From: Candidatus Curtissbacteria bacterium
GTDB lineage: Bacteria > Patescibacteriota > Microgenomatia > Curtissbacterales > GWA2-41-24
Assembly: GCA_030647775.1 (NCBI GenBank)
Contig: JAUSJC010000007.1
Coordinates: 50,038-114,037 of the forward strand
Length of the DNA: 64,000 nt
Direction of reading: 5' to 3'
Shown in pieces: positions 4,984-61,715 of this stretch. The translations under genes and the position numbers were made by a program. The notes below the pieces were generated by a model that had not been told where the DNA came from, did no database searches, and saw nothing but the letters and a program-made list of their open reading frames with translations. Position 1 is the first letter of the stretch; every line of letters starts with the position of its first letter.

Positions 4984-5289
4984 ATGGCTGACTTGACAAT
5001 AAAGGAAATAGAAGAAGTGTTGGATAAAAAGCTCGATCAAAAACTCGAGCCTATTAAGAAGACACTTGATGAACATTCTAAGAAGCTTAATGAACACGAT
5101 GGTCAGTTTAGATCAATAAAAAAAACTCTTGACGAACATTCCCAAAGGTTAGAATCCATTTTCCCGGATATGGTAGATGTTCAGAAAAAGACAGATATAC
5201 TACCAGACATATATGACATTGTTAAGGGCACTAAAGAAAAGGTCGATGACCATGAAGAAAGACTAGGAGTTCTAGAACACGCTGCTTAA
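4984..5289 (+). CDS. coiled-coil repeat protein, paralog 2
   Basis: Shares the 'LDEHSQRLES...DVQKKTD(I/L)LPDIYDIVKGTKEKVDDHEERL' C-terminus with the ORF at 2670..2954. Confidence 0.5.
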   Translation: MADLTIKEIEEVLDKKLDQKLEPIKKTLDEHSKKLNEHDGQFRSIKKTLDEHSQRLESIFPDMVDVQKKTDILPDIYDIVKGTKEKVDDHEERLGVLEHAA

Positions 5290-11964: not shown

Positions 11965-12279
11965 CACTATTGGCATTTTTTAAATTTAGCTTGTTTGTAC
12001 AATCCGAAAGGGGTTCGAAGATTAAATATCACAAAAAGGCATAGCTTCGAGACGGGTTCGAAGATAGGACTACAGTATAATTTGATCTAAGTTAACCTAA
12101 TTCTAACCAAAAGATAACCTAATTCAAGTCAACCAGATACGCACAAACTTGACGCAGTTTGATCTAAATGGATACAATACTTGACGTAGTTTGTGCTATT
12201 GCCATTTTTTGCCGGGGGCATTTAAGATATCTATAGATATCTGCACTTTAATTAATTACGGGTAGGGTAAAAGAAACAG

Positions 12280-12368
12280 TCCTGCCGACGAGATTCGAAC
12301 TCGCAAAAACCGTGTCACGGGTTAGTAGCTTGATAGGCCACCGCGTCTACCAGTTGCGCCACAGCAGG
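12280..12368 (-). tRNA. class II (long variable arm) tRNA of uncertain identity, embedded in a 13-bp leader/trailer inverted repeat
   Basis: Acceptor CCUGCUG/CGGCAGG, 3-bp D-stem with GG D-loop, variable stem-loop CCGU-GAC-ACGG, T-loop GAGTTCGAATCTC. The best fold gives anticodon loop CUAUCAA (formal anticodon AUC), which matches no Leu/Ser/Tyr/Sec isoacceptor. Confidence 0.5.
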
Positions 12369-12827
12369 GCAACGTCTTTTACCCTATCCTCAATTAATTT
12401 TTAAGGTTCTCCTACAAAAAGGCACCTTGCCTTCCGGCTTAGGTGCTCGATTCTTCTCTATTTAGTCTGCACCCACAACTTTTATTTTCAGGGCTATCTC
12501 GCACCTCCTCGATAGCTCACCGTTTACCTATTAATTTATACTGCCCTTATTATGAAAATGTGGCATTTGGCATGCAGACTGAATTTCACGAATATGCCAA
12601 AAGCACAATATATTGTGGTCTAATCTTAGTATATACACAACTGAAAATAATAATCAAGCGCTTTTATCATTTCCGGCCGCCACAGACCCGGTAGCGGGTC
12701 TAGTTTCGCTTTACCTTGCCAAAAAGCCTATTTAATTCTGCTCAGTTTAATTTTTGGAGTAAATCGTTAATATATTGGATTTCAATAGCTGTAAGGGTTC
12801 GAATATCGCTCCATAGACCCGACCAAG

Positions 12828-19778: not shown

Positions 19779-19849
19779 GCGGGTGTAGTTCAATGGTAGA
19801 ACACCAGTTTTCCAAACTGGATACGGCAGTTCGATTCTGCTCACCCGCT
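19779..19849 (+). tRNA. tRNA-Gly(TCC)
   Basis: Acceptor GCGGGTG, anticodon loop UUUCCAA, T-loop GTTCGATTC. Confidence 0.8.
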
Positions 19850-19905
19850 CAGCATTGGCGGGCAGGCAAGCGAAAAAGAGGGGTTCGACTCCCCTATCCC
19901 GCTCC
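19850..19905 (+). other. tRNA-like 3' fragment (T-arm plus acceptor-like end) immediately after tRNA-Gly
   Basis: 'GAGGGGTTCGACTCCCCTATCCCGCTCC' resembles a T-arm and acceptor 3' strand with no D or anticodon arm; it carries the motif 'GGCAGGCAAGCG', also found at 22917 and 23588. Confidence 0.25.
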
Positions 19906-19958
19906 CGTCTTTCGCCGTCCGTCGCCTTTGGCTAAGGACGGCTACAGACGGTAGCTTA

Positions 19959-20201
19959 TTGATGTACTACGTTTATATACTTCAGAGTTCAAAATCTGGA
20001 ATTTTTTACTACGGTTATACGACCGATTTAAAGAAGAGATTTAAAGAACATAACGAAAGCAAGTCTAAATTCACGAGCGGTCATATACCCTGGAAGCTTG
20101 TTTTCTACTGTGCATTTATTGATAAGAAAAAGGCAAAAGATTTTGAACTTTATCTAAAATCAGGATCTGGCAAGGCGTTTGCCTATAAGAGATTAGTTTA
20201 A
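19959..20201 (+). CDS. stand-alone GIY-YIG nuclease-domain protein
   Basis: 'YYVYILQS...YYGYTTDLKKRFKEHN'; paralogous to the gene at 11608..11868. Confidence 0.65.
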   Translation: MMYYVYILQSSKSGIFYYGYTTDLKKRFKEHNESKSKFTSGHIPWKLVFYCAFIDKKKAKDFELYLKSGSGKAFAYKRLV

Positions 20202-20305
20202 GTAGCTTTAGTGAAAGACGTAAGTGGTGATGAAAAAGGTGTTCCGAAACTGTCCGACGCTTAAGCTATGGACAGTGAAGGACACCCTTCACCCGCTCCA
20301 AACGC

Positions 20306-22559: not shown

Positions 22560-22731
22560 GGGGGAATGACAACATTGGCGGTGGCTATCGGACGGTTTAT
22601 TTTGCCTCTCCTGGGCTTGATAAGCCCCCATTAATTTTCTAAAATGGGCTATAATCTGCATGAAGAAGCGGGGTTCGGAATAAGCATATCTTGCGATTCT
22701 AAGAATCTAAATTTGCGTCTCCCGCTCCAGC

Positions 22732-22834
22732 GCCCGCGTAGCTCAACGGATAGAGCAGTCGCGTTCTAAGCGATTGTGGGGGTACGCTTTTTCGCGTAGC
22801 GAAAAACTCGAGAAGTCAGATCCCTCCGCGGGCA
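22732..22834 (+). tRNA. tRNA-Arg(TCT)-like gene carrying a roughly 35-nt hairpin insertion in the T-loop
   Basis: Collinear with the canonical tRNA-Arg(TCT) at 29913..29985 through the acceptor, D-arm and anticodon arm (loop GUUCUAA). The T-loop TTCGAAT is replaced by 'T-ACGCTTTTTCGCGTAGCGAAAAACTCGAGAAGTCAG-AT'; the T-stem (GGGGG/CCCTC) and acceptor are preserved. Confidence 0.5.
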
Positions 22835-22914
22835 CAGGAAATTATGGCGTGTAGCGGAAGGATTGGGCTCTGCCCGATGCCTACCCACCCCGACTTTTCG
22901 CGCGCTAAATTCCA

Positions 22915-23000
22915 AAAGTACCGGGTGCAGGCAAGCGGAGCTGTACCAAAAAAATCCGAAGTGCTATTGCCCTGAGTTTATCGAATGGGCTAAAATTAGC
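22915..23000. repeat. 87-bp direct repeat, copy 1 (promoter/5'UTR-like), upstream of the DUF4258 toxin gene
   Basis: Shares 'ATCCGAAGTGCTATTGCCCTGAGTTTATCGAATGGGCTAAAATTAGC' (47/47) with 23583..23667, and the upstream 40 nt at about 80% identity. Confidence 0.7.
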
Positions 23001-23011
23001 CAACTTAGACG

Positions 23012-23266
23012 ATGAAAATTATTTATACACAACATTCGGAAGAAAAACTTAAACGGAGAGATATTAAGAAGTTCAAAATTAATAAAAAACTAATTAAATC
23101 AATTTTAAAAGATCCTCAAATTAAATCCAAAACAAAGTATGGTGATAGCTGCGCCCTGTCAGCTATCAATGGTGACCACGACATAAGAATTATCTATGAT
23201 ATAATAAGTAAAGATAATTCTAAGGTTATAACCTTTCATATCTCTAAAAGAGGCAGGTACGGATGA
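23012..23266 (+). CDS. DUF4258-family toxin (toxin of a DUF4258/DUF2283 TA pair)
   Basis: 'IIYTQHSEEKLKRRDI...IRIIYD...KVITFHISK' matches the DUF4258 pattern; 4-nt overlap (ATGA) with the downstream partner. Confidence 0.55.
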   Translation: MKIIYTQHSEEKLKRRDIKKFKINKKLIKSILKDPQIKSKTKYGDSCALSAINGDHDIRIIYDIISKDNSKVITFHISKRGRYG

Positions 23267-23475
23267 AATTAAAATATTACAAAAAAGACGACATTTTGGT
23301 TATGAATTTTTCCTCAAAAGCTGTTGAGGATTCGTATGAAGTGGAAAGCGCGATTTTAGAAGTCGATAAAGAGAACAATCCTGTATCACTAGAAATTCTG
23401 CATGCTTCCAACTTTTTTAATACAGCCTCCAAAGAACTTCCAATCGGAATCAAGCAAAAATTTTTCTCAGCCTAA
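23263..23475 (+). CDS. DUF2283-family antitoxin
   Basis: 'MKLKYYKKDDILVMNF...VSLEILHASN' matches DUF2283 (consensus 'MKIEYDKEADALYI...GIEILNAS'). Confidence 0.55.
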   Translation: MKLKYYKKDDILVMNFSSKAVEDSYEVESAILEVDKENNPVSLEILHASNFFNTASKELPIGIKQKFFSA

Positions 23476-23582
23476 CTCCTTGCGCTTTCGCACATATCAT
23501 CACAAACTGTGATGATATGGATTAAATACAATCGTAAAAGGTCACCATATATTTTTGCGCTGAGGATTCCCAAAACGCGCCA

Positions 23583-23667
23583 AAGTACCGGGCGCAGGCA
23601 AGCGGCCCTATCCCCAAAAAATCCGAAGTGCTATTGCCCTGAGTTTATCGAATGGGCTAAAATTAGC
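23583..23667. repeat. 87-bp direct repeat, copy 2, upstream of the 732-aa ORF
   Basis: See copy 1. Confidence 0.7.
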
Positions 23668-28642: not shown

Positions 28643-29038
28643 TTATTCCTTCTTACCGACATCATTGAGAAGCTTGATTAATTGGATAATTTTCTTTTTA
28701 TCCAACTTTTCACCTCTAGCAGTTCTGTAAAAGGCAGGCAAAATAGAAAGAATGTGTGGACTTTTAAGCAAATCCTCTGGGAGTTTTCCTTTTGCTGCAT
28801 GAGCAAGATCAAAGAATATTGTCCATTCTTCGCTGTCGCGCGGAATTTTTAAGGCTAATGCGTATCCTTCAAGTTTTTGTTTATCTATGCTTGGAGGAAG
28901 AATATTTCTTTCAAGTCTGCTGATGTTACCCGGGTCGTAGCTATACCTTTCACAAAAAGATCTCAAGGTAAACCCTAAGGTTATTCTTTTTAATCTGAAA
29001 AATTCTCCGAAGGTTTGAGCAGTGTCTTGACTTTTCAC
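28643..29038 (-). CDS. XRE-family helix-turn-helix transcriptional regulator
   Basis: N-terminal 'FGEFFRLKRITLGFTLRSFCERYSYDPGNISRLERN' HTH_3-like segment; 4-nt gap before the ImmA partner. Confidence 0.6.
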   Translation of the reverse strand: MKSQDTAQTFGEFFRLKRITLGFTLRSFCERYSYDPGNISRLERNILPPSIDKQKLEGYALALKIPRDSEEWTIFFDLAHAAKGKLPEDLLKSPHILSILPAFYRTARGEKLDKKKIIQLIKLLNDVGKKE

Positions 29039-29129
29039 AGGAAGTGTTGTAAAAATATTACAACGTTATTTTAACGCAGCACTTGACTATTGTCAAGTCG
29101 ACAAAAAATTAGAAAGGCGGTGAATAAAA

Positions 29130-29339
29130 ATGGCAGTATTTAAGATCTACAAAGACGTTCAAGGCTATTACCGATGGCGATTCCGAGCAGCTAACAATAA
29201 AATCATCGCCGACAGCGGTGAAGGATACGTAAAGTGGCAAGATGCGAAAGCAGGAATAGATTTTATTAAGAAATATGCACCTGATGCCGAAGTTAAAGAC
29301 TTAACCGCACAAAAAACTGCTCGAGGACTCTTTAGTTAA
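29130..29339 (+). CDS. DUF1508 (YegP-like) protein
   Basis: 'FKIYKDVQGYYRWRFRAANNKIIADSGEGY' matches the DUF1508 repeat. Confidence 0.55.
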   Translation: MAVFKIYKDVQGYYRWRFRAANNKIIADSGEGYVKWQDAKAGIDFIKKYAPDAEVKDLTAQKTARGLFS

Positions 29340-29391
29340 AGGAGGTGAAGTCGATGAAATTTATACAAATTGCGGTTACCCGCGCAGGGGA

Positions 29392-29553
29392 AATGTATTT
29401 AGTATTTAGGATTGTGGTTTAGTCCCAGTACTAGATTCCGGGCTTGGAGTCGGCGAGGGAATTACTGTTGGATTAAATACGGGTTCGACAAGCTCACTGC
29501 TATAACTTGTACCTCCGCGATATCTGTCACCTTAAGCACGTTGGGATTTTAGC
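29392..29553. repeat. repeat family C copy 1 (about 160 nt)
   Basis: About 80% identical to 31528..31667. It contains the hairpin ACAAGCT-N9-AGCTTGT and the conserved 'CCGCGATATCTGTCACCTTA'. Confidence 0.65.
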
Positions 29554-29831
29554 TTCGTTTCTTGAGCAGCTAATTAATTTTGGCTTGGATGGTAAAAAAC
29601 TAAAACTGTCCGAACTTAAAAAACACTTTAGTAGGTTGCAGATAGATCCGGCGAAAAAAAGGTATTTGAAGTTTTTGCTCTCCTCGCCCCAATGAGCCAA
29701 ACACACATTCTAACTGAGAGGCAAAAGCTTCTTTGAATGAGCGCGATTGGCAGGATTTTTTTCTGATCTGGAATGTTATAATCCCCAAAGCAGCAGACCG
29801 GTTAGAATTTCGTCCAACCAGCCGCTCCCAT

Positions 29832-29877
29832 GCGCCTGTAGCTCAACGGATATCAGCAGCGCTTCGCGCTCTGATAT
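29832..29877 (+). other. tRNA 5' fragment (acceptor plus D-arm of the tRNA-Arg family) fused to an unrelated hairpin
   Basis: 'GCGCCTGTAGCTCAACGGATA' is identical to the 5' 21 nt of the tRNA-Arg-like genes, then 'TCAGCAGCGCTTCGCGCTCTGATA'. Confidence 0.4.
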
Positions 29878-29912
29878 TTTTAAGTTACACTTAAAAAGAG
29901 AGCAAATTTTAT

Positions 29913-29985
29913 GCGCCTGTAGCTCAATGGATAGAGCACTCGCGTTCTAAGCGATTGGTTGGGGGTTCGAATCCCTCCAGGCGCA
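29913..29985 (+). tRNA. tRNA-Arg(TCT), canonical copy
   Basis: Acceptor GCGCCTG/CAGGCGC, anticodon loop GUUCUAA, T-loop GGTTCGAATCC. Confidence 0.75.
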
Positions 29986-29995
29986 CATAAAATTA

Positions 29996-30075
29996 ATCGC
30001 GTTCTAAGCGAATGATTGGGGGTTCGCTTTTTTCGCGCAGCGAAAAACTCGAGAAGTCAGATCCCTCCAGGCGCA
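29996..30075 (+). other. tRNA-Arg(TCT) 3'-half fragment (anticodon stem to 3' end) carrying the T-loop hairpin insertion; att-like
   Basis: 'TCGCGTTCTAAGCGAATGATTGGGGGTTCG-CTTTTTTCGCGCAGCGAAAAACTCGAGAAGTCAG-ATCCCTCCAGGCGCA'; the same insertion as at 22732..22834 with compensatory changes in its stem. Confidence 0.5.
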
Positions 30076-30244
30076 CACACGTCTTGCTCCGACGTAAACG
30101 CTTCAGTTTCTCTCATGTATAATATTTTTAGTGAAGATTTCCGGCGGGCTTGTTGTTAATCTTATTGCAGGTTTAAAAGGACTTATGTCAAAAACATATA
30201 CCAAAAATTAAGAAAGATGTTTGTGGAGATGAATAAAAATTACT

Positions 30245-30772
30245 ATGGCTAAAAAACAGGCAATAAAAAAATTACCGGATAATCAAATCGCTTTCTATCA
30301 ATCACCTGATGGATCAGTGAATATTGAAGTGCTGTTTGCCGAAGAAAATATCTGGCTCACCCAAAAGAAAATGGCAGAGCTTTTTGATTGCTCAACAGAT
30401 AATATCTCGCTTCATCTAAAAAACATCTTTGGGGAAAAAGAATTGGATAAAGATTCAGTTACCGAGGAATACTCGACAACCATGACAAGCGGTTTAATGA
30501 GAGGGTCAAATATAGTTGCCTCGGTGCCAAAATATCTAGTGATGCCAGAAGAGAGAGAAGAGCAATTCAACAGAAAAATAAAGTCGCCTTTATTCGCAGA
30601 AAGATTCAAAGATGATAATTGGCAAATCCTTTATTTTGATTCAATCAGAAATAATTGGAAAAAACTTAAACAGAAAAATATAAAACTTGGCTCATTAGTG
30701 GGTAAAAAAGGCCCAGAAGCACTCCGCCCTAATTCTAATGAAAATGATAATGGACAAATAGGACTTTTATAA
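30245..30772 (+). CDS. RhuM-like (virulence protein RhuM family) DNA-binding protein
   Basis: 'IAFYQSPDGSVNIEVLFAEENIWLTQKKMAELFDCSTDNISLHLKNIF' matches the RhuM N-terminal signature. Confidence 0.55.
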   Translation: MAKKQAIKKLPDNQIAFYQSPDGSVNIEVLFAEENIWLTQKKMAELFDCSTDNISLHLKNIFGEKELDKDSVTEEYSTTMTSGLMRGSNIVASVPKYLVMPEEREEQFNRKIKSPLFAERFKDDNWQILYFDSIRNNWKKLKQKNIKLGSLVGKKGPEALRPNSNENDNGQIGLL

Positions 30773-30815
30773 TAAATGGGGCTTATTGATCACAAAAATC
30801 TAAAAATTATTAAGA

Positions 30816-31313
30816 TTATTTTAAATACCTATAAATTCCGAAAACATGAATAGCTTTTCTCTTTATCACGTTTATATGTGTTTCTAGCTTATAAATATTT
30901 GCCGGAAAGTCCTTGATATCTTTTGTCATAAGATAAATGTTTTTACCATATTTAACTAATGTTCCACCTAATAAAAGGTCTACGATTGAGATATCTTTAC
31001 CTTCTATTCCGTAAAGTTTTAATAACCCGATTGCATTGTCAAATACACCCTTTTCCAGAGGTATAATTGCATCAATGATTTCATCAAGGAATTTTTTCTT
31101 TTCTTCAAAAATCTTCAATTCAAAAGAACCTTTAGTAAACTCAATTAACACGGCATTGACGGTAACTAAAGTCACGCCATTTCCTTTCAATTCATTGAAG
31201 AATTTGCCATATTCACCCGGATTATGGAACGCGTCTATAAAGACATTTGTATCAAGAAGCAAATGAGAATTTTTAAGAGTTTGGAAAAATCCCTGAGGTG
31301 TTACTATTTGCAT
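30816..31313 (-). CDS. PIN-domain toxin (VapC-like)
   Basis: 'LLLDTNVFIDA' N-terminal acidic motif; further conserved acidic residues downstream. Confidence 0.65.
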   Translation of the reverse strand: MQIVTPQGFFQTLKNSHLLLDTNVFIDAFHNPGEYGKFFNELKGNGVTLVTVNAVLIEFTKGSFELKIFEEKKKFLDEIIDAIIPLEKGVFDNAIGLLKLYGIEGKDISIVDLLLGGTLVKYGKNIYLMTKDIKDFPANIYKLETHINVIKRKAIHVFGIYRYLK

Positions 31314-31449
31314 CGCTTCTAGTTTTTTCGAGATACCTTTCCTCTTCGTCGAAATATTTCTTTATTTTAGCTGCAAGTTTTTCAAACTTATTAATATCAA
31401 TCTTTTTGCCCTTTTTAGTTTTGGGAAGAGTTTCACTTTTTGTTTTCAT
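31273..31449 (-). CDS. putative antitoxin partner of the PIN toxin
   Basis: Small basic ORF 'MKTKSETLPKTKKGKKIDINKFEKLAAKIKKYF...' overlapping the PIN gene start. The ORF-track start at 31509 would run into repeat C2, so the internal Met is preferred. Confidence 0.4.
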   Translation of the reverse strand: MKTKSETLPKTKKGKKIDINKFEKLAAKIKKYFDEEERYLEKTRSDANSNTSGIFPNS

Positions 31450-31527
31450 TTTGATGACCTCTAAATATAGTATACCATTTGTCGTAAATACTCTAAGTAC
31501 CCAAAACAATTCCCGTCGCGCCTTGGA

Positions 31528-31667
31528 GATGTATTTAGTTTAGGGCCTGGAAGCGCCAGATGTTGACTCTACCGGGCTGGGAGTCGGTGAGGAGATTACG
31601 GTGGCGTTAAATACGGGTTCGACAAGCTCACTGCTATAGCTTGTACCTCCGCGATATCTGTCACCTT
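31528..31667. repeat. repeat family C copy 2
   Basis: See copy 1. Confidence 0.65.
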
Positions 31668-31904
31668 ATTTCAATAGACTTTCTTTGGAAGTTCAAAATA
31701 GAAATCTTATGAGGTGTGTTTATAGCTCTTGGAGCAAAGATTAAAACGACTCTTGTGGTGCTAATCTGTCGTATTCCGTAGATAATTTTTTTTGCAACTT
31801 ATTCGAACCACGTACCGCTTCTTTAATTATTCGTTTCTTTTCTTTAGCGGGTAATTCGAAGAAGTTTGTACCTTTGTCTTTTTTGATCAAGAAATTGAGT
31901 ACTT

Positions 31905-32633
31905 TCATTTAATTAATCTCTCCAGATCTTGTTCATTGTACCCTATTTTAAGGTGGTTATCAATCATATCGATATTAAACTTAGTATTCTCTTGCTCATT
32001 TGTATAATTCTTCTCAACTAAATGAAGCTCAATTTTATCACCAAGAATCTTTTTCACTTTATTCACGTTCGCTTTAGCTAAAAAGAACGAATTTATAAAC
32101 ATATCTTTTGAAACATGTCTTCCTTCAACCTTTTCTCTCTTCTTTGTAAAATCCCATGCAATAAGAGGATCCTGGTATAGGTAGAAAATACCAACCTTCC
32201 GACCTCTATTTAAGGCTCTCTTAACATCTTGAAACCCTTTACCAAAGTCAGAAAACGTTCCATCAACAATAACATTCTGACTTCTTTTTTGAACTTCATC
32301 GTAAAGTTTCTCAACGCCTAATGCGGCCGCCCCTTGAAACTTGTAAGCATTGCCGCCCGTGTAGCCTGGAATAATATCCCTAATTTCGTCAGCGTCTATC
32401 CTAATAATTTTTGTATTGGGATCGTAGTTTTTTATAAACGACTTAGAATATTCTGTTTTGCCTGCACCAGGGGAACCGGCCATAAAAATTGTGAAAGGGT
32501 TGGATACGCCAGGAAATTTAGTAGGGTCAGCAAATTTTTCAATAAGCAAATTCTTATTATCTCTAACCCATTTCTTTGCTTTTTCTTCTAGATCATTATT
32601 ATTCATCGACTGATTATAGCAATTAAGGATCAC
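31905..32633 (-). CDS. zeta-toxin family P-loop kinase
   Basis: Walker A 'GSPGAGKT' in a zeta-toxin-like context ('IFMAGSPGAGKTEYS...RIDADE'). Confidence 0.7.
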   Translation of the reverse strand: MILNCYNQSMNNNDLEEKAKKWVRDNKNLLIEKFADPTKFPGVSNPFTIFMAGSPGAGKTEYSKSFIKNYDPNTKIIRIDADEIRDIIPGYTGGNAYKFQGAAALGVEKLYDEVQKRSQNVIVDGTFSDFGKGFQDVKRALNRGRKVGIFYLYQDPLIAWDFTKKREKVEGRHVSKDMFINSFFLAKANVNKVKKILGDKIELHLVEKNYTNEQENTKFNIDMIDNHLKIGYNEQDLERLIK

Positions 32634-32659
32634 ACCTTACTGCGCCGAAGAAGTAGACT

Positions 32660-32742
32660 GAGGGACAGGAGAAGAAATCATTGTTGCATTGAATACTTGA
32701 ACCTCGGCGATATCTGTCACCTTAAGCACGTTGGTATTTTAC
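32660..32742. repeat. repeat family C copy 3 (internally deleted)
   Basis: 'ACCTCGGCGATATCTGTCACCTTAAGCACGTTGGTATTTTA' matches the 3' 45 nt of copy 1 (including the 'AAGCACGTTGG' tail); the central hairpin is missing. Confidence 0.55.
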
Positions 32743-32798
32743 CAAAATTGACCTAATTTAGTTTTGGTGAGTACGTTTGCGGTTGTCTAATATATAAT

Positions 32799-33344
32799 TT
32801 GCTTGTGGGACTGATTGTAAATGTCTTAATAAGACTCGGAATCTTTTATTTTCTGGGGGAGGTTTTGCTTTTTGCCGACGACCCGAGGTTTGCCGGCAAA
32901 GCCATCCCGATCAGGAACTTGGTGATTGTAATTTCGCTTAGCCTGCTTTTTCCGCTTCTCTATTTTTTAAAGAAGAAGTCAAGAAAATATCCTTTGTGGT
33001 TCGACAACCTTTACCTTTCAATTTTTCTTTTGGATATGGCCGGCAACTCCTTTAATTTATACGACCGCTATTTTTATTTTGATTTAATCCCCCATTTCCA
33101 CGGGACCGGCGCCATCAGCGCGGTTATGGCCGGGGCTTTTGGGCTTGGCGGTTTGGCGGCAGTCGGGCTTGCCAATATTATCCATATGGTTTTAGAGGCG
33201 CAGGAATATTACACGGATGTTTTCTTTAAAACCCATAACGTGCGGGGTATTGGCGATACGGTCAATGACCTTAGCGTCGGGCTGATCGGTTCGGCTGTCT
33301 ACATTGGGTTTTTGATTTTGGTGAAGAGACTGGCGAAAAAGTGA
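32799..33344 (+). CDS. hypothetical polytopic membrane protein
   Basis: 181 aa, about five TM helices. Confidence 0.4.
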   Translation: MLVGLIVNVLIRLGIFYFLGEVLLFADDPRFAGKAIPIRNLVIVISLSLLFPLLYFLKKKSRKYPLWFDNLYLSIFLLDMAGNSFNLYDRYFYFDLIPHFHGTGAISAVMAGAFGLGGLAAVGLANIIHMVLEAQEYYTDVFFKTHNVRGIGDTVNDLSVGLIGSAVYIGFLILVKRLAKK

Positions 33345-39753: not shown

Positions 39754-39832
39754 GAACTAGTGTCAGGTATAAGAGAGCTTATTGTCAACTCCGTTGATAA
39801 GCACGTATCAGGTGTCAAGTCCGCCCACTATT

Positions 39833-39926
39833 GTCATCCTGAATTTATTTCAGGATCTTGGTGAAGATGCTGAAATATACAGTGCCATGCGCCCTCGCTT
39901 CGCTCGGGGCTAGAGTTCAGCATGAC
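39833..39926. repeat. repeat family B copy 1 (about 95-nt double-hairpin element with 11-bp terminal inverted repeats)
   Basis: 'GTCATCCTGAA-TTTAT-TTCAGGATC...GATGCTGAA-ATATACAGTGCCATGCGCCC...-TTCAGCATGAC'; about 85% identical to 42888..42985. Confidence 0.7.
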
Positions 39927-42876: not shown

Positions 42877-42887
42877 GATTGATTTGT

Positions 42888-42985
42888 GTCATCCTGAACT
42901 CGTTTCAGGATCTCTTTTGCGTTAGATGCCGAAATATACAGTGCCATGCGCCCTTGCTTCGCTCGGAGCTAAAGTTCGGCATGAC
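42888..42985. repeat. repeat family B copy 2
   Basis: See copy 1; located immediately upstream of the uvrA start. Confidence 0.7.
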
Positions 42986-43069: not shown

Positions 43070-43899
43070 GATTTGGTCGCGGAGGATGGCTGCCTGGCTA
43101 ATGCAGTGGCTAATGCAGGTCCGACCTGTTTAGCTTTTGTTTGCTCTCCTTCTCTTCAAATTCCAAAGTTAATTCTGCCAGAACTTCTGCGGAATTAATC
43201 TGGTAATCTTCCACAAAACTCTTGTACGATGAATTGTTTTGCAAGAAGGCTGTTTTTGCAATATTGAAGAAAGCAAGTATTTCTTCCGGGTGGATCCATG
43301 TAGTGTTTCTGGATCCTAAATATTCACCATAGCTAGAATAAGGATATGACAACAGGTCGGACCTGTTTTGATCGTCTAATGTGGCAATACCAGCCGGGTT
43401 TAAATGAATATACCGAGTTAGGTGAAGTAAGTAGGAATCTTCGGTTACAAGAACTCCTTTATATTTTCCTTGAAAAAGTGGCCCTACTCTTTCGTGACGT
43501 TCGTTAAAGTACTTTGTGTAAGCATTACCAATTCTTCTCATAAAACCGACTATCCCGTACTTAGTATTCTGTTTAAGCAATAAATGAAAATGGTTCGGCA
43601 TTAAGGCATAGCAAATAAGTTGTACTTCTTCGAAGATCTTCGATTGTCTTACAGGTCGGACCTGTTTGGGCGTAGGTGGTAGTAAATAGCTTTTAAGGTA
43701 TGAGAGGAAAATTTTGTAATCCATTTCGTCGTCAAAAACTATTCGTTTATCTACTCCACGGTTGTACACGTGATAAAAACCACCCTCTAAGTATTGTTTG
43801 ACGGAGTTTTTCGAAGGCATGCAGAATATAATAATACACCAAAGCAGGTCGGACCTGTTATGGGGATTTGAGTGACATGATTTGGTCGCGGAGGATGGC
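43070..43899. mobile_element. IS200/IS605-family (RAYT-like Y1 transposase) element bounded by perfect 21-bp direct repeats and carrying four 17-bp palindromes
   Basis: Direct repeat 'GATTTGGTCGCGGAGGATGGC' at 43070..43090 and 43879..43899. Palindrome 'AACAGGTC(G/C)GACCTGTT' at 43115..43130, 43351..43367, 43651..43666 and 43844..43860. The insertion truncates the uvrB 3' end. Confidence 0.65.
43110..43820 (-). CDS. IS200-like Y1 (HuH) tyrosine transposase / RAYT
   Basis: HuH motif 'MPNHFHLLL' and catalytic Tyr region 'RYIHLNP'; likely start at the Met of 'MPSKNSVKQYLEGGF'. Two of the palindromes lie inside the reading frame, translated as 'NRSDL' and 'VRPV'. Confidence 0.65.
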   Translation of the reverse strand: MPSKNSVKQYLEGGFYHVYNRGVDKRIVFDDEMDYKIFLSYLKSYLLPPTPKQVRPVRQSKIFEEVQLICYALMPNHFHLLLKQNTKYGIVGFMRRIGNAYTKYFNERHERVGPLFQGKYKGVLVTEDSYLLHLTRYIHLNPAGIATLDDQNRSDLLSYPYSSYGEYLGSRNTTWIHPEEILAFFNIAKTAFLQNNSSYKSFVEDYQINSAEVLAELTLEFEEKESKQKLNRSDLH

Positions 43900-45855
43900 G
43901 GCGCGTTCAAAGTCGAGGACGCGGGCGGCATCTTTCATCTCGCGGGTGAGAACCCTGACCAATTTTTGTTTGTCGTCAGCAAGTAGTGAACCCTCTTTGG
44001 CACGGTCGAGAGCGGATTGGATAACCGCATCCTGGTAGGACTTTTTCTTTTCTTCGAACATCTGTTCGCGATTGACCAGTTTTTCGCGGATAGGTTTGGC
44101 GATAGATTCGGGGGTGATACCATGTTCTTTGTTGTAATCGGTCTGGATTTTGCGTCTGCGGTTGACCTCGTCAATGGCCCTTTGCATGGAACCGGTAATG
44201 TTGTCTGCATACAAAACGACCAAACCCTCGAGGTGGCGGGCGGCGCGGCCCATTGTTTGCACAAGGGACGTTTCGGAACGCAAAAATCCTTCTTTGTCGG
44301 CGTCTAAGATGGCGACAAGAGAGACTTCAGGCAGGTCTAGACCCTCTCTGAGTAAATTTATACCTACAAGAACATCATAATTACCCAACCGAAGGTCGTC
44401 GAGGATATCGCTTCTATCTAAAGTTAGGACTTCCGAATGTAAATACTGGACTTTTAAGCCTTTTTCTTCTAAATATTTGGACAGTTCCTCTGCCATACGT
44501 TTTGTAAGCGTAGTAACCAATGCCCTTTGTTTTTTGGCGGTGCGCTTCTTAATTTCGGCCATTAAATCTTCTATTTGGCCTTCGGATGGCCGGATTTCTA
44601 TCTGCGGATCGATTAAACCCGTTGGCCTAATCAATTGTTCGACGACTTGGCTGGAAATATTCAGCTCGTACTGTGCCGGTGTGGCGGATGTGTAAACAAC
44701 TTGCTTGATTTTGCGTGAAAATTCGTCAAATCTCAACGGCCGGTTGTCAAACGCGCTTGGCAGGCGAAACCCAAAATCAACAAGCATTTGTTTCCTAGCA
44801 CGGTCACCATTATACATGCCGTTTATTTGGGGTACAGTCATATGGGATTCGTCGAGTATTAATAGATAATCTTTAGGAAAATGGTCCAGTAAACTAAATG
44901 GGGGATCTCCGGGATTCCTGCCGTCAAAGTACCTCGAATAGTTTTCAATCCCCTTGCAGTATCCAAAAGTTTGAATCATTTCCAGGTCGTATAGTGTTCT
45001 TTGCTTTAGCCTGTGAGCTTCCAATTCTTTGCCGGCGGCTTTAAGTTCCTTTAGCCGAGCTTCTAGTTCCAGCCGGATTGATTGCATCGCCCCGAAGGCG
45101 CTTTCGTCCGAGGCTACATGATGTTTGGCGGGGTAAATAAAAGCGAAGTCGAGTTTTTCGATTGTTTGGCCCGTTATTGGAGAAATTGATTCAATTTTAG
45201 ATAATGTTTCGCCCGAGAAAGTAAGTTTGAGGGCATCGTTTTCGTACGAAGGAAGGATTTGGACTGATTCGCCGCGGATCCTGTAAGTTCCCCTGGCAAA
45301 ATCAACGTCGTTCCTTTCATATTGAAGCTTGGCAAATGCCGTCAAAAGGTCGTTCCTGGCCCAATCTTTTCCTATTTCCAGGGTAACTCTGGAGTTTTGG
45401 TATTCTGTGGGAGAACCCAAGTTGTAGATAGCGGAAACAGAAGCAATGACTATGACGTCTTTTCTAGTAGCCAGAGCGGTGGTAGCAGCCAGCCGCAGCC
45501 TGTCGATTTCTTCATTAATTTCGGTTTCTTTTTCGATGTAAGTGTCTGTAGCCGGCATATAGGCTTCCGGCTGGTAATAGTCGTAATAAGAAACAAAGTA
45601 GCAGACGGCGTTTTGGGGGAAAAATTCGCGGAATTCCTGGTAAAGCTGGGCGGCGAGTGTTTTGTTGTGGGAAATAACCAAAGTTGGTTTTTGGGTTTTT
45701 TGGATAACGTTGGCCATGGTAAAAGTTTTACCGGAGCCTGTTACGCCAAGCAGGGTTTGGTATTTAAATCCTTTTTCGATGCCCTTAACTAACTTATCAA
45801 TGGCTTGCGGCTGGTCACCGGTAGGTTTATAAGCTGATGTAAGTTCGAATTTCAT
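43858..45855 (-). CDS. uvrB: excinuclease ABC subunit B, with its C-terminal codons replaced by the insertion
   Basis: 'GVTGSGKTFTMA' Walker A, helicase motifs, beta-hairpin region, C-terminal UVR domain '...ERAAILRDQI'. The original terminus 'QAVKVNSQQ*' can be read beyond the downstream direct repeat at 43041..43069. Confidence 0.9.
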   Translation of the reverse strand: MKFELTSAYKPTGDQPQAIDKLVKGIEKGFKYQTLLGVTGSGKTFTMANVIQKTQKPTLVISHNKTLAAQLYQEFREFFPQNAVCYFVSYYDYYQPEAYMPATDTYIEKETEINEEIDRLRLAATTALATRKDVIVIASVSAIYNLGSPTEYQNSRVTLEIGKDWARNDLLTAFAKLQYERNDVDFARGTYRIRGESVQILPSYENDALKLTFSGETLSKIESISPITGQTIEKLDFAFIYPAKHHVASDESAFGAMQSIRLELEARLKELKAAGKELEAHRLKQRTLYDLEMIQTFGYCKGIENYSRYFDGRNPGDPPFSLLDHFPKDYLLILDESHMTVPQINGMYNGDRARKQMLVDFGFRLPSAFDNRPLRFDEFSRKIKQVVYTSATPAQYELNISSQVVEQLIRPTGLIDPQIEIRPSEGQIEDLMAEIKKRTAKKQRALVTTLTKRMAEELSKYLEEKGLKVQYLHSEVLTLDRSDILDDLRLGNYDVLVGINLLREGLDLPEVSLVAILDADKEGFLRSETSLVQTMGRAARHLEGLVVLYADNITGSMQRAIDEVNRRRKIQTDYNKEHGITPESIAKPIREKLVNREQMFEEKKKSYQDAVIQSALDRAKEGSLLADDKQKLVRVLTREMKDAARVLDFERAAILRDQIMSLKSP

Positions 45856-57236: not shown

Positions 57237-57439
57237 CAAGAGTAACCATTTTGCCCCGTTGACCCCGCCAATCTTACTTCTCGCCTTTCCCGCCTGCAAC
57301 CCGCCCAGAACTGTGTAGCTGTTGGCGGGTAGCATTGCGGGCAGGTCACTATTATTCATACACGGCTCGAAGAGCGATTTTGGAGGGGCAAGCAAATTTT
57401 GATGTATTGACAAGTATTTTTACACGCTATATATTGCCT

Positions 57440-60263: not shown

Positions 60264-61715
60264 ATGGACAACAATCAACGAGTCATTATCCATGCGGACT
60301 TGAATAGTTTCTTTGCAACGGCCGAACAGCAAACAAACCCTGCCCTACGCGGTAAACCGGTAGGAGTTATCAAAGCCCCGGGCAGAACTTGCATTATCGC
60401 CGCTTCCGTTGAAGCTAAAAAGTTTGGCGTCGGTACTGGCAGCCGCGTTTACGATGCCAAGAAACTCTGTCCCGAGATTATTCTGGTGCCGGCTAACTTT
60501 AGCAAATACGAGAAAATGACTTACCGTTTTATTGATATTTGCAAAACTTATTCACCGGCTTGCGAGGTCTTTTCACTGGACGAGTGTTTTATCGATGTAA
60601 CGGAAACGGAATTTATCTGGCCGCGCCCGCCACGCAATGCCAGTCTTGAACAACTCGCTTGGCTGGAAATGGGGAAAGCATTGCGAGGCAATGCGGGCGG
60701 GAAGAATGTTTTTAACATTGCCTTTGAAATTAAGGACAGGTTAAGGCGAGAAGTCGGCGATTATATGACTTGCTCCGTCGGTGTTTCCCACAACAGGTTT
60801 TTGGCCAAGCTTGCTTCTTCCCAAATTAAACCCGATGGGCTTTTTTGGATAACGGACGATAATAAACTTGAAGTTTTGGATAGAAGCAAACTGACGGATG
60901 TCTGCGGCCTTGGGGACGGACTGTATCAGCATCTGACCCGCGTCGGGATTGATAGTTTTCCAATACTTAGGGCAAAATCCATAACATTTTTGCAAGAACA
61001 TTTCGGGCCGCACTGGTCTTTACATCTTTATAACTTAGCGCGGGGAATTGATGATTCAGGGGTAGGATCGATTCTCGAAATTCCCGACGCCAAAAGCGTT
61101 GGGCGCACTTATACAACCCACCGCAATTTATATAGAAAAGAAGAAGTTTGGCGCTTAACCCGTAATCTATGTGAGGAGACGGCGGCCAAAGCCCGCAAGA
61201 TGCATTTGGCGGGCCGGTACGTAGGGTTTTGTCTTCGCGGCGGGCCTGCCCGCATCGCTACCCGCCAACAGCTACACAGTTCTGGGCGGGTTGCTGGCGG
61301 GGAAGTGTCAGAGTGGGGACATTTGACTTTAAAAAATTATATTAACGACGGCAAAATTCTTTTTGATCTATGCTTGCAAATTTCTAAGAACTGGAACTTC
61401 TTCCAACAGCCCTTCGACTTCGCTCAGGTCTTCGACTCCGAGGTCGCTCAGACTCGAGGAGGTCTTCGACCTTATGTGCGTTTTTGCGGAGTAACACTGG
61501 GGATGCTTACCAAATCGGCGTATCTCCCCTCTCCCCTTTTCGTTTCTGATAGCCGGCGGGTAGATCTAATAAAAACAATTGACAAGGTTAACGGCAAGTA
61601 CGGAGACTACACCATTTACCCGGGCCAACTGCTTGGAACGAGCTTAATTCGGCCGGAGGTAAACGGTTTTTTCGGCGACCGCAAATACCGGTTAGACTTT
61701 GCAAGCAAAAATTAA
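60264..61715 (+). CDS. dinB: Y-family DNA polymerase (DinB/Pol IV-like)
   Basis: 'VIIHADLNSFFATAEQ' catalytic Asp motif, 'SLDECFIDVT', 'SVGVSHNRFLAKLAS'; probable start at 'MDNNQRVII'. Confidence 0.8.
   Translation: MDNNQRVIIHADLNSFFATAEQQTNPALRGKPVGVIKAPGRTCIIAASVEAKKFGVGTGSRVYDAKKLCPEIILVPANFSKYEKMTYRFIDICKTYSPACEVFSLDECFIDVTETEFIWPRPPRNASLEQLAWLEMGKALRGNAGGKNVFNIAFEIKDRLRREVGDYMTCSVGVSHNRFLAKLASSQIKPDGLFWITDDNKLEVLDRSKLTDVCGLGDGLYQHLTRVGIDSFPILRAKSITFLQEHFGPHWSLHLYNLARGIDDSGVGSILEIPDAKSVGRTYTTHRNLYRKEEVWRLTRNLCEETAAKARKMHLAGRYVGFCLRGGPARIATRQQLHSSGRVAGGEVSEWGHLTLKNYINDGKILFDLCLQISKNWNFFQQPFDFAQVFDSEVAQTRGGLRPYVRFCGVTLGMLTKSAYLPSPLFVSDSRRVDLIKTIDKVNGKYGDYTIYPGQLLGTSLIRPEVNGFFGDRKYRLDFASKN

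Follow-up and report, generated by a model that had tools for sequence, protein, structure and literature searches.

Repeats between toxin-antitoxin modules in a Candidatus Curtissbacteria genome may be copies of a small orphan gene at a tRNA-type hotspot

We analyzed a 64-kb window of a metagenome-assembled genome (MAG) of Candidatus Curtissbacteria, a member of the Microgenomates within the candidate phyla radiation (CPR); the window is the whole stretch of DNA considered here, and the genome was visible only across these 64 kb. Within it, a tRNA-Arg(TCT) cluster, a 175-amino acid (aa) open reading frame (ORF), a VapBC-like module and a zeta-toxin module lie among three copies of a direct repeat, repeat family C, all on the same strand (Table 1). 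The original prediction for this DNA read the repeats as conserved sites separating toxin-antitoxin (TA) cassettes in an integron-like array or, failing that, as a family of structured non-coding RNAs. The presence of three copies between the modules is confirmed here. We propose, with a probability of about 0.5, that repeat C is instead a minus-strand small gene of ~170 nucleotides (nt) whose three copies multiplied as modules were added at a single hotspot.

The repeat occurs far above chance. The 18-mer GCGATATCTGTCACCTTA is found three times where 0.02 occurrences are expected, and a 29-mer of the repeat's left part twice where 0 are expected. Copies 1 and 2 align locally over 154 nt (29381-29534 against 31517-31668), while copies 1 and 3 are 94% identical over the 47 nt (29505-29551 against 32695-32741) that make up a core and a promoter-side segment, R. 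Copy 1 consists of body, core and R, copy 2 of body and core, and copy 3 of a divergent body, core and R; the homology of copy 2 to the other two ends exactly at 31668. The motif AAGCACGTTGG had been noted in the two end copies and not in the middle one, and this distribution holds. Copy 3 had also been described as internally deleted. It does lack a 26-nt segment, but the better view is that copies 1 and 2 gained this segment; outside the core, the body of copy 3 is only ~64% identical to that of copy 1. Contigs of the Logan assemblies from run SRR13727527 match the window with exact identity until they break within copies 1 and 2, an independent sign that the repeat is genuine and that its sequence, frameshifts included, does not stem from an assembly slip. 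No further copy is present within the window.

Table 1. Features of the locus carrying repeat family C, in window positions
Feature	Position	Strand	Details
Truncated gene start	29341..29381	+	Strong Shine-Dalgarno, ATG 29355, 9 codons (MKFIQIAVT...), directly after DUF1508 gene
Copy 1	29381..29551	-	Mini-gene with 17-nt R segment; 3' flank 29381-29405
Copy 1 parts		-	-10 TAAAAT 29546-29551; GTG 29539-29537; core 29506-29534; insertion 29480-29505; C-terminal frame 29406-29480
Quasi-palindromic insertion, 26 nt	29480..29505, also 31614-31639	.	Shifts reading frame; absent from copy 3
tRNA-Arg(TCT) cluster	29822..30077	+	Intact gene 29913-29986; 5' tRNA fragment; 3' half with 34-nt hairpin insertion in T-loop
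175-aa ORF	30245..30772	+	"RhuM-like" label unconfirmed
VapBC-like module	30816..31449	-	PIN-domain toxin 30816-31313; overlapping upstream 58-aa ORF 31273-31449; gene calls on L012
Copy 2	31517..31668	-	Mini-gene without promoter and first two codons
Copy 2 parts		-	Core 31640-31668; insertion 31614-31639; C-terminal reading frame 31540-31614; conserved 3' flank 31517-31539
Zeta-toxin module	31710..32630	-	Zeta 31905-32606; 55-aa partner 31741-31908; own -10 element
Copy 3	32637..32741	-	
Copy 3 mini-ORF	32637..32729	-	Intact, 30 codons, VLKVTDIAEVQVFNATMISSPVPQSTSSAQ followed by stop; GTG start 32729-32727
Copy 3 core	32696..32724	-	Codons 3-12 of mini-ORF; differs from copies 1 and 2 by two synonymous changes
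Copy 3 R segment	32725..32744	-	Extended -10 TGnTAAAAT (32744-32736), 6-nt spacer, first two codons; chromosomal backbone

Copy 3 provides the clearest view of what the unit may encode. Its GTG follows TGGTAAAAT (TGnTAAAAT) after the 6-nt spacer and thus stands 7 nt downstream of an extended -10 element; given this proximity, the transcript of copy 3 is probably leaderless. Two features that the earlier inspection had singled out take on a meaning in this frame: AAGCACGTTGG.ATTTTA corresponds to the -10 element with the first two codons, and the "invariant" CCGCGATATCTGTCACCTTA encodes a conserved N-terminus, (L)KVTDIAEVQ, the core being part of the first 12 codons. A complete unit would comprise the -10 promoter element, an ORF of 30-36 codons and ~25-30 nt of conserved 3' flank. 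A simple two-hexamer scan found no promoter or terminator consensus match inside the repeat.

The copies diverge in a codon-periodic manner. By hand count, 7 of the 9 differences between copies 1 and 2 fall in one codon phase, as do 10 of the 13 between copies 2 and 3 (32662-32697) in that same phase. Over 20 aligned codons, we counted 5 synonymous and 2 non-synonymous codon changes between copies 1 and 2, 11 and 2 between copies 2 and 3, and 6 and 4 between copies 1 and 3. The 16 nucleotide differences separating copies 2 and 3 are distributed as 2, 1 and 13 over the three codon positions. Across the copies, the proportion of synonymous differences (pS) is 0.38-0.81 and that of non-synonymous differences (pN) 0.05-0.12, a signature of purifying selection, and the two core differences that set copy 3 apart are both silent in the minus frame. 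An excess of synonymous change is therefore present in the family, while a frame open from start to stop is found in copy 3 only. We consider it fairly likely that repeat C represents an orphan mini-gene that was duplicated together with its promoter and has been disrupted in two of its copies. The original prediction had named a piece of a duplicated gene as the outcome that would speak against it, and the codon-periodic divergence and intact ORF of copy 3 essentially amount to this.

The disruption of copies 1 and 2 can be traced to the 26-nt segment. This segment repeats the adjacent GGTACAAG in inverted form and makes up the second arm of the hairpin ACAAGCT-N9-AGCTTGT; it holds AGCTTGT(CGA)ACC, the inverted copy of the neighboring GGTACAAGCT. 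It looks like a quasi-palindromic insertion of the template-switch type, from which the noted hairpin arose. In copies 1 and 2, the N-terminal frame meets a stop after 22-25 codons (at 29462 in copy 1), and the homologous C-terminal part is found in another frame, as VFNPTVIPSPTPSPESSTGTKPQS and VFNATVISSPTPSPVESTSGASRP, each followed by a stop. Removing the 26 nt in silico restores a single ORF in both copies, with an ...EVQVFN(A/P)T... junction as in copy 3. Since the N- and C-terminal parts each look coding and share one frame only without the 26 nt, the insertion must be derived, and copies 1 and 2 are probably pseudogenes frameshifted by the identical insertion. The hairpin itself had been reported as conserved, which we could not uphold: its 7-bp stem is found in two of the three copies, its DNA fold is weak (-3.7 kcal/mol, z -0.2, and -7.7 kcal/mol, z -1.65), and the sole stem substitution breaks a pair in copy 1. 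Copies 1 and 2 also form a mosaic, with 8 differences in the 35 nt left of 29472 and 1 in the 62 nt to the right, which hold the insertion and the core (Fisher p 0.0011 at the best breakpoint, uncorrected for the scan). This pattern suggests that the core, together with its insertion, was recently exchanged between two older alleles through conversion or crossover.

The right flank of the locus can be compared with a relative. To the right of copy 3 lies a membrane protein gene (32799-33344; 99% identity to NCBI protein Q7S45_01900). L015 (GCA_016187105.1), the closest sequenced relative, encodes this protein at 84% identity and shares synteny across the right flank (SBP, SecG, CofD, UvrC, UvrA). 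The R flank and the promoter region of the membrane gene align as well (L015 6824-6858 against 32726-32760; 88.6%, E 4e-7), and the homology extends to ...TAAAAT..GTGC. Beyond this point, L015 carries a minus-strand tRNA-Gly(TCC), with different accessory genes to its left, and the window carries the mini-gene. A tRNA-Gly at the exact position of the mini-gene suggests that the locus is a tRNA-type insertion hotspot and that R belongs to the chromosomal backbone. The other relatives of the membrane protein (L016, L017, L021-L025) are not syntenic upstream and were uninformative. The unit bears a marginal likeness to the 3' end of the tRNA-Gly, at the ...ISSPTPSP... codons (best p 0.016 of six tests), which is unproven and which we did not use.

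We then looked at the modules between the copies. The zeta toxin is well supported (Zeta_toxin domain, Pfam 1.4e-33), and its ~920-nt module recurs at 87-90% nucleotide identity in three CPR contigs: L018 (4046-4951), L019 (3878-4783) and L020 (6425-7345). There it has sharp homology boundaries and unrelated neighbors (TIR/HEAT genes; an AAA_5 system) in defense-island surroundings, and its ends carry no repeat C, no direct repeat and no inverted repeat. It follows that the module is portable by itself and that repeat C is not its recombination site. L018 encodes a large serine recombinase ~7 kb from the module. All cassettes had been described as encoding TA or defense functions. This stands for the zeta toxin and, less firmly, for the PIN-domain protein, whose matches are weak (E 3-4e-4) and below Pfam's cut-off. 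It does not extend to the 175-aa ORF, which has no match in Pfam, NCBIfam or PHROGs, nor to the first interval as a whole, which also holds the tRNA-Arg and tRNA fragments. The Pfam scan covered window ORFs of at least 110 aa, with one candidate per locus where alternative frames overlapped.

The surroundings of copy 1 point to further rearrangement. A tRNA-Arg-like repeat at 22722-22836 contains a full-length copy (22730-22836) with the same T-loop insertion as the tRNA-Arg cluster (89% over 81 nt), and the two bracket a ~7-kb island that contains copy 1. The island encodes an orphan 732-aa protein, two DNA methylases, an XRE/M78 pair and DUF1508, and no integrase. At its left end (homology boundary 29381), copy 1 cuts the gene that starts at 29355, which marks this end as a likely recombination joint.

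None of the classes first proposed for the repeat was recovered. The definition of an attC site calls for R and L boxes together with a palindromic fold (PMC4889954). The suggested search for attC-like R'/R'' cores returned 0 RYYYAAC...GTTRRRY pairs at 40-160 nt spacing on either strand of 29000-33000, where ~1.1 are expected by chance. With this result, the lack of a palindromic fold and a zeta module that occurs elsewhere without the repeat, the integron or cassette-array reading fell away. The structured RNA family fared no better: Rfam gave no match on the repeat with gathering cut-offs, nor with E relaxed to 10, whole-unit folds of all copies on both strands lie at z -0.9 to +0.65 relative to shuffles, and the substitutions are codon-periodic, covariation carrying no weight among three copies. 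The statement that no integrase is visible proved correct for tyrosine recombinases in the scanned ORFs of the window, where the sole mobile-element-type domain is an IS200-like Y1_Tnp (43110-43931). What survives of the initial reading is that self-contained TA modules are bracketed by the repeat and that the asymmetry of the copies around the zeta module, left part plus core against core plus R, suggests recombination within it.

Other identities for the unit were rejected. A tRNA or tmRNA is excluded by negative ARAGORN and Rfam results, and no cloverleaf is possible. A miniature inverted-repeat transposable element or insertion sequence remnant is contradicted by the lack of inverted repeats at the unit ends and of a duplication shared by the flanks of the three copies. 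The template and variable repeats of a diversity-generating retroelement do not fit differences of mixed type (T/G, C/T, G/A, A/G, G/C) in a window without a reverse transcriptase domain. A terminator reading was likewise rejected.

As far as such short queries can show, the unit appears confined to this organism. The collections covered were GTDB genomes, JGI metagenomes, IMG/VR, phages, plasmids, 1.84 billion protein representatives and 25 fetched loci. Searches of the fetched loci with nhmmer and fuzzy matching returned matches only in the organism's own contigs, and BLASTN of the unit against phages and plasmids gave none. An exact scan with the core found 11 matches in GTDB genomes, all attributable to chance with dissimilar flanks, 0 in viral contigs and 0 in JGI metagenomes. 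At the protein level, the minus-frame peptide (MLKVTDIAEVQVFNAT...) found nothing in phage and plasmid tblastn, viral loci, Pfam or exact look-ups; the plus-frame peptide found nothing in a word-index search, a back-translated metagenome scan or phage tblastn. A profile hidden Markov model run against the 1.84 billion proteins returned one low-complexity match only.

How the copies came to lie between modules can be proposed only tentatively. It is possible, though we would put it below even odds, that TA modules were stacked at a former tRNA site by recombination in the mini-gene. Modules would be added serially at the hotspot through recombination in the core, the mini-gene's conserved 5' portion. 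Every such event would leave, on one side, a promoterless displaced copy such as copy 2, with body and core and an end at the core/R boundary. On the other side it would leave a hybrid such as copy 3, in which the chromosomal promoter (R) and core are joined to a divergent incoming body. Later gene conversion would have carried the core with its insertion from one of copies 1 and 2 to the other. Copy 1 would be a duplicate shifted by a further rearrangement, because it shares 17 nt of promoter flank with copy 3, sits inside the tRNA-Arg-bracketed island and truncates a plus-strand gene start. The crossovers may have been homologous or catalyzed by a recombinase encoded elsewhere; the window fits either. 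The repeats would then be by-products of module accretion, not dedicated recombination sites. Two hallmarks of island accretion are seen here, a tRNA locus in the relative and asymmetric target copies, and a third, an integrase at the island end, is absent.

The window contains several other repeats and unusual tRNA loci. An 86-nt direct repeat (22915-23000 and 23582-23667; 93%) surrounds a TA-like cassette of two genes, at 23012-23266 and 23263-23475, the second of which is DUF2283. Each copy of this repeat ends in GCTAAAAT just upstream of an ATG, so that here a second promoter-like segment is duplicated around a small module. A third repeat family, ATATACAGTGCCATGCG, has three exact copies (19668, 39875, 42934) where 0.05 are expected. 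Two of these lie in 95-nt repeats (39832-39926 and 42887-42985) flanking uvrA, one of which adjoins the Y1_Tnp ORF, and the family may be a REP/RAYT-like system (repetitive extragenic palindromes with their associated transposase). At 19779-20305, two fragments resembling tRNA 3' ends come after a tRNA-Gly(TCC) and enclose an 80-aa GIY-YIG nuclease ORF (19959-20201, Pfam 1.4e-17). At 12279-12368, ARAGORN predicts a 90-nt tRNA-Asp whose anticodon, ATC, is unusual and whose Rfam tRNA score is just 42.5 bits; a 36-nt inverted repeat (12250-12285 and 12364-12399) flanks it. Finally, a 211-nt direct pair (2744-2954 and 5079-5289) shows 81% identity, and a 61-nt inverted pair (57285-57345 and 61245-61305; 93%) encloses ~3.9 kb including a DinB-like polymerase gene.

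Several observations weigh against a mini-gene multiplied by module accretion. The mini-protein has no homologue in any collection, a 30-aa query having little power. With two of the three copies frameshifted, either purifying selection acted before the insertion arose or conversion spread the insertion. The 29-nt core is short for a RecA-dependent crossover, and the scanned ORFs of the window encode no integrase or recombinase domain, leaving no enzyme for site-specific events. For the ancestral locus, L015 is the sole informative relative. In addition, the antisense plus frame (...GLGVGEEITVALNTGSTSSLL and stop) has a similar third-position bias across the body. On its own this bias fits either strand; because of the start codon, the promoter element and the two synonymous core changes, the minus strand is preferred by roughly 3:1. 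This bears directly on an unlikely alternative, in which the copies are 3' end remnants of a plus-strand gene, left by successive integrations that carried a replacement end, and the core is an attachment (att) site. Phage 21 and e14 integrate in this way at the end of E. coli icd, carrying a replacement end. The plus frame, ending in DCGLVPVLDSGLGVGEGITVGLNTGSTSSLL, keeps its stop as TAA or TAG, a conserved non-coding core just past that stop would suit an att core, and a gene start is cut off to the left of copy 1. But the frame has no start codon or upstream continuation in any copy, stops precede the fragment in all three, it spans only 12 codons in copy 3, and it leaves the core unaccounted for. 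The synonymous core changes and the intact minus ORF behind a promoter element would have to be coincidences, and neither an integrase nor a homologue came to light, the latter in the 1.84 billion-protein profile search and the back-translated metagenome scan. More doubtful again is a local segmental duplication of the small gene followed by decay, unconnected with the arrival of the TA modules, its position between them being incidental in a fast-evolving island. Copy 1 has the 17-nt promoter flank of copy 3, which makes at least this copy a simple duplicate of the chromosomal locus, and the window contains several further pairs of local repeats; yet duplication explains neither why copy 2 ends at the core/R boundary, where the high identity of copy 3 begins, nor why copy 3 is synonymously saturated relative to the others alongside a near-identical core.

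We regard as improbable that the core (29-47 nt, with or without R), which would lie in the 5' end of an orphan mini-gene occupying a former tRNA locus, is a true site at which a trans-acting recombinase stacks integrase-less TA modules, a cassette platform of non-integron type. The core is indeed far more conserved than the adjacent body (94% versus ~64%), left-plus-core and core-plus-R junctions surround the zeta module, the mosaic breakpoint lies next to the core, and a second TA-like cassette (23012-23475) is also bracketed by a direct repeat, that of 86 nt. Against this, the zeta module ends without such a site in L018-L020, the unit is known only from this organism and lacks attC features, no recombinase is encoded nearby, and N-terminal coding with a promoter-proximal position already covers the conservation of the core. 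Even less likely than such a site is a variant of the mini-gene in which ribosomes bypass the 26-nt hairpin insertion, which would hence be tolerated. We rejected programmed -1 frameshifting and gene-60-type bypass over the 26 nt: there is no slippery site, and the candidate take-off codon is GUU in copy 1 but GCU in copy 2, where it fails to match the landing codon. It is very improbable that the unit is a small RNA, non-coding or dual-function, whose transcription on the minus strand starts from the former tRNA promoter. The unit does stand in the place of the tRNA gene behind the same -10 element and has no protein homologues, but it has no Rfam counterpart, folds no better than shuffles on either strand, and its substitutions follow codons instead of preserving pairs, the only one in the stem breaking a pair.

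Altogether, this removes a false lead, as there is no integron-like array and no new RNA family in this CPR genome. It also provides a worked example in which direct repeats between accessory modules would be duplicated copies of a target gene, recognizable by their codon-periodic divergence. A genuine mini-gene would amount to an orphan small protein fused to a promoter that once served a tRNA; if the core is a true site after all, it would represent a non-integron platform for cassette capture in a CPR bacterium. The locus illustrates how ultra-small CPR genomes may stack TA and defense modules without a resident integrase, and the 920-nt zeta module is a handy marker for tracking exchange among them.

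The locus can finally be placed beside three known systems. Like integron arrays and clusters of attC sites lacking an integrase (CALIN; PMC4889954), it has short modules, often TA, a recurring spacer of ~100-170 nt and no integrase nearby. Unlike them, repeat C has no R''/R' boxes and no attC fold, it is coding, its zeta module is repeat-free elsewhere, and the orientation of the modules relative to the repeat breaks the rule of an ORF followed by attC. Within the repeat, the 26-nt segment resembles quasi-palindromic, template-switch insertions in holding an inverted copy of its immediate neighbor and creating a hairpin, whereas an identical insertion in two diverged paralogues needs gene conversion or two events. 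For the locus as a whole, the comparison is with tandem island accretion at tRNA, tmRNA or gene-end hotspots. It differs from these in that its target is an orphan 30-codon gene and not a tRNA, its units are only ~1-2 kb and the 64 kb hold no integrase. It resembles them in the tRNA-Gly site of the relative, in repeats that are partial or whole copies of the target, in an intact backbone-side copy facing a promoterless displaced one, and in a cargo of TA and defense modules.

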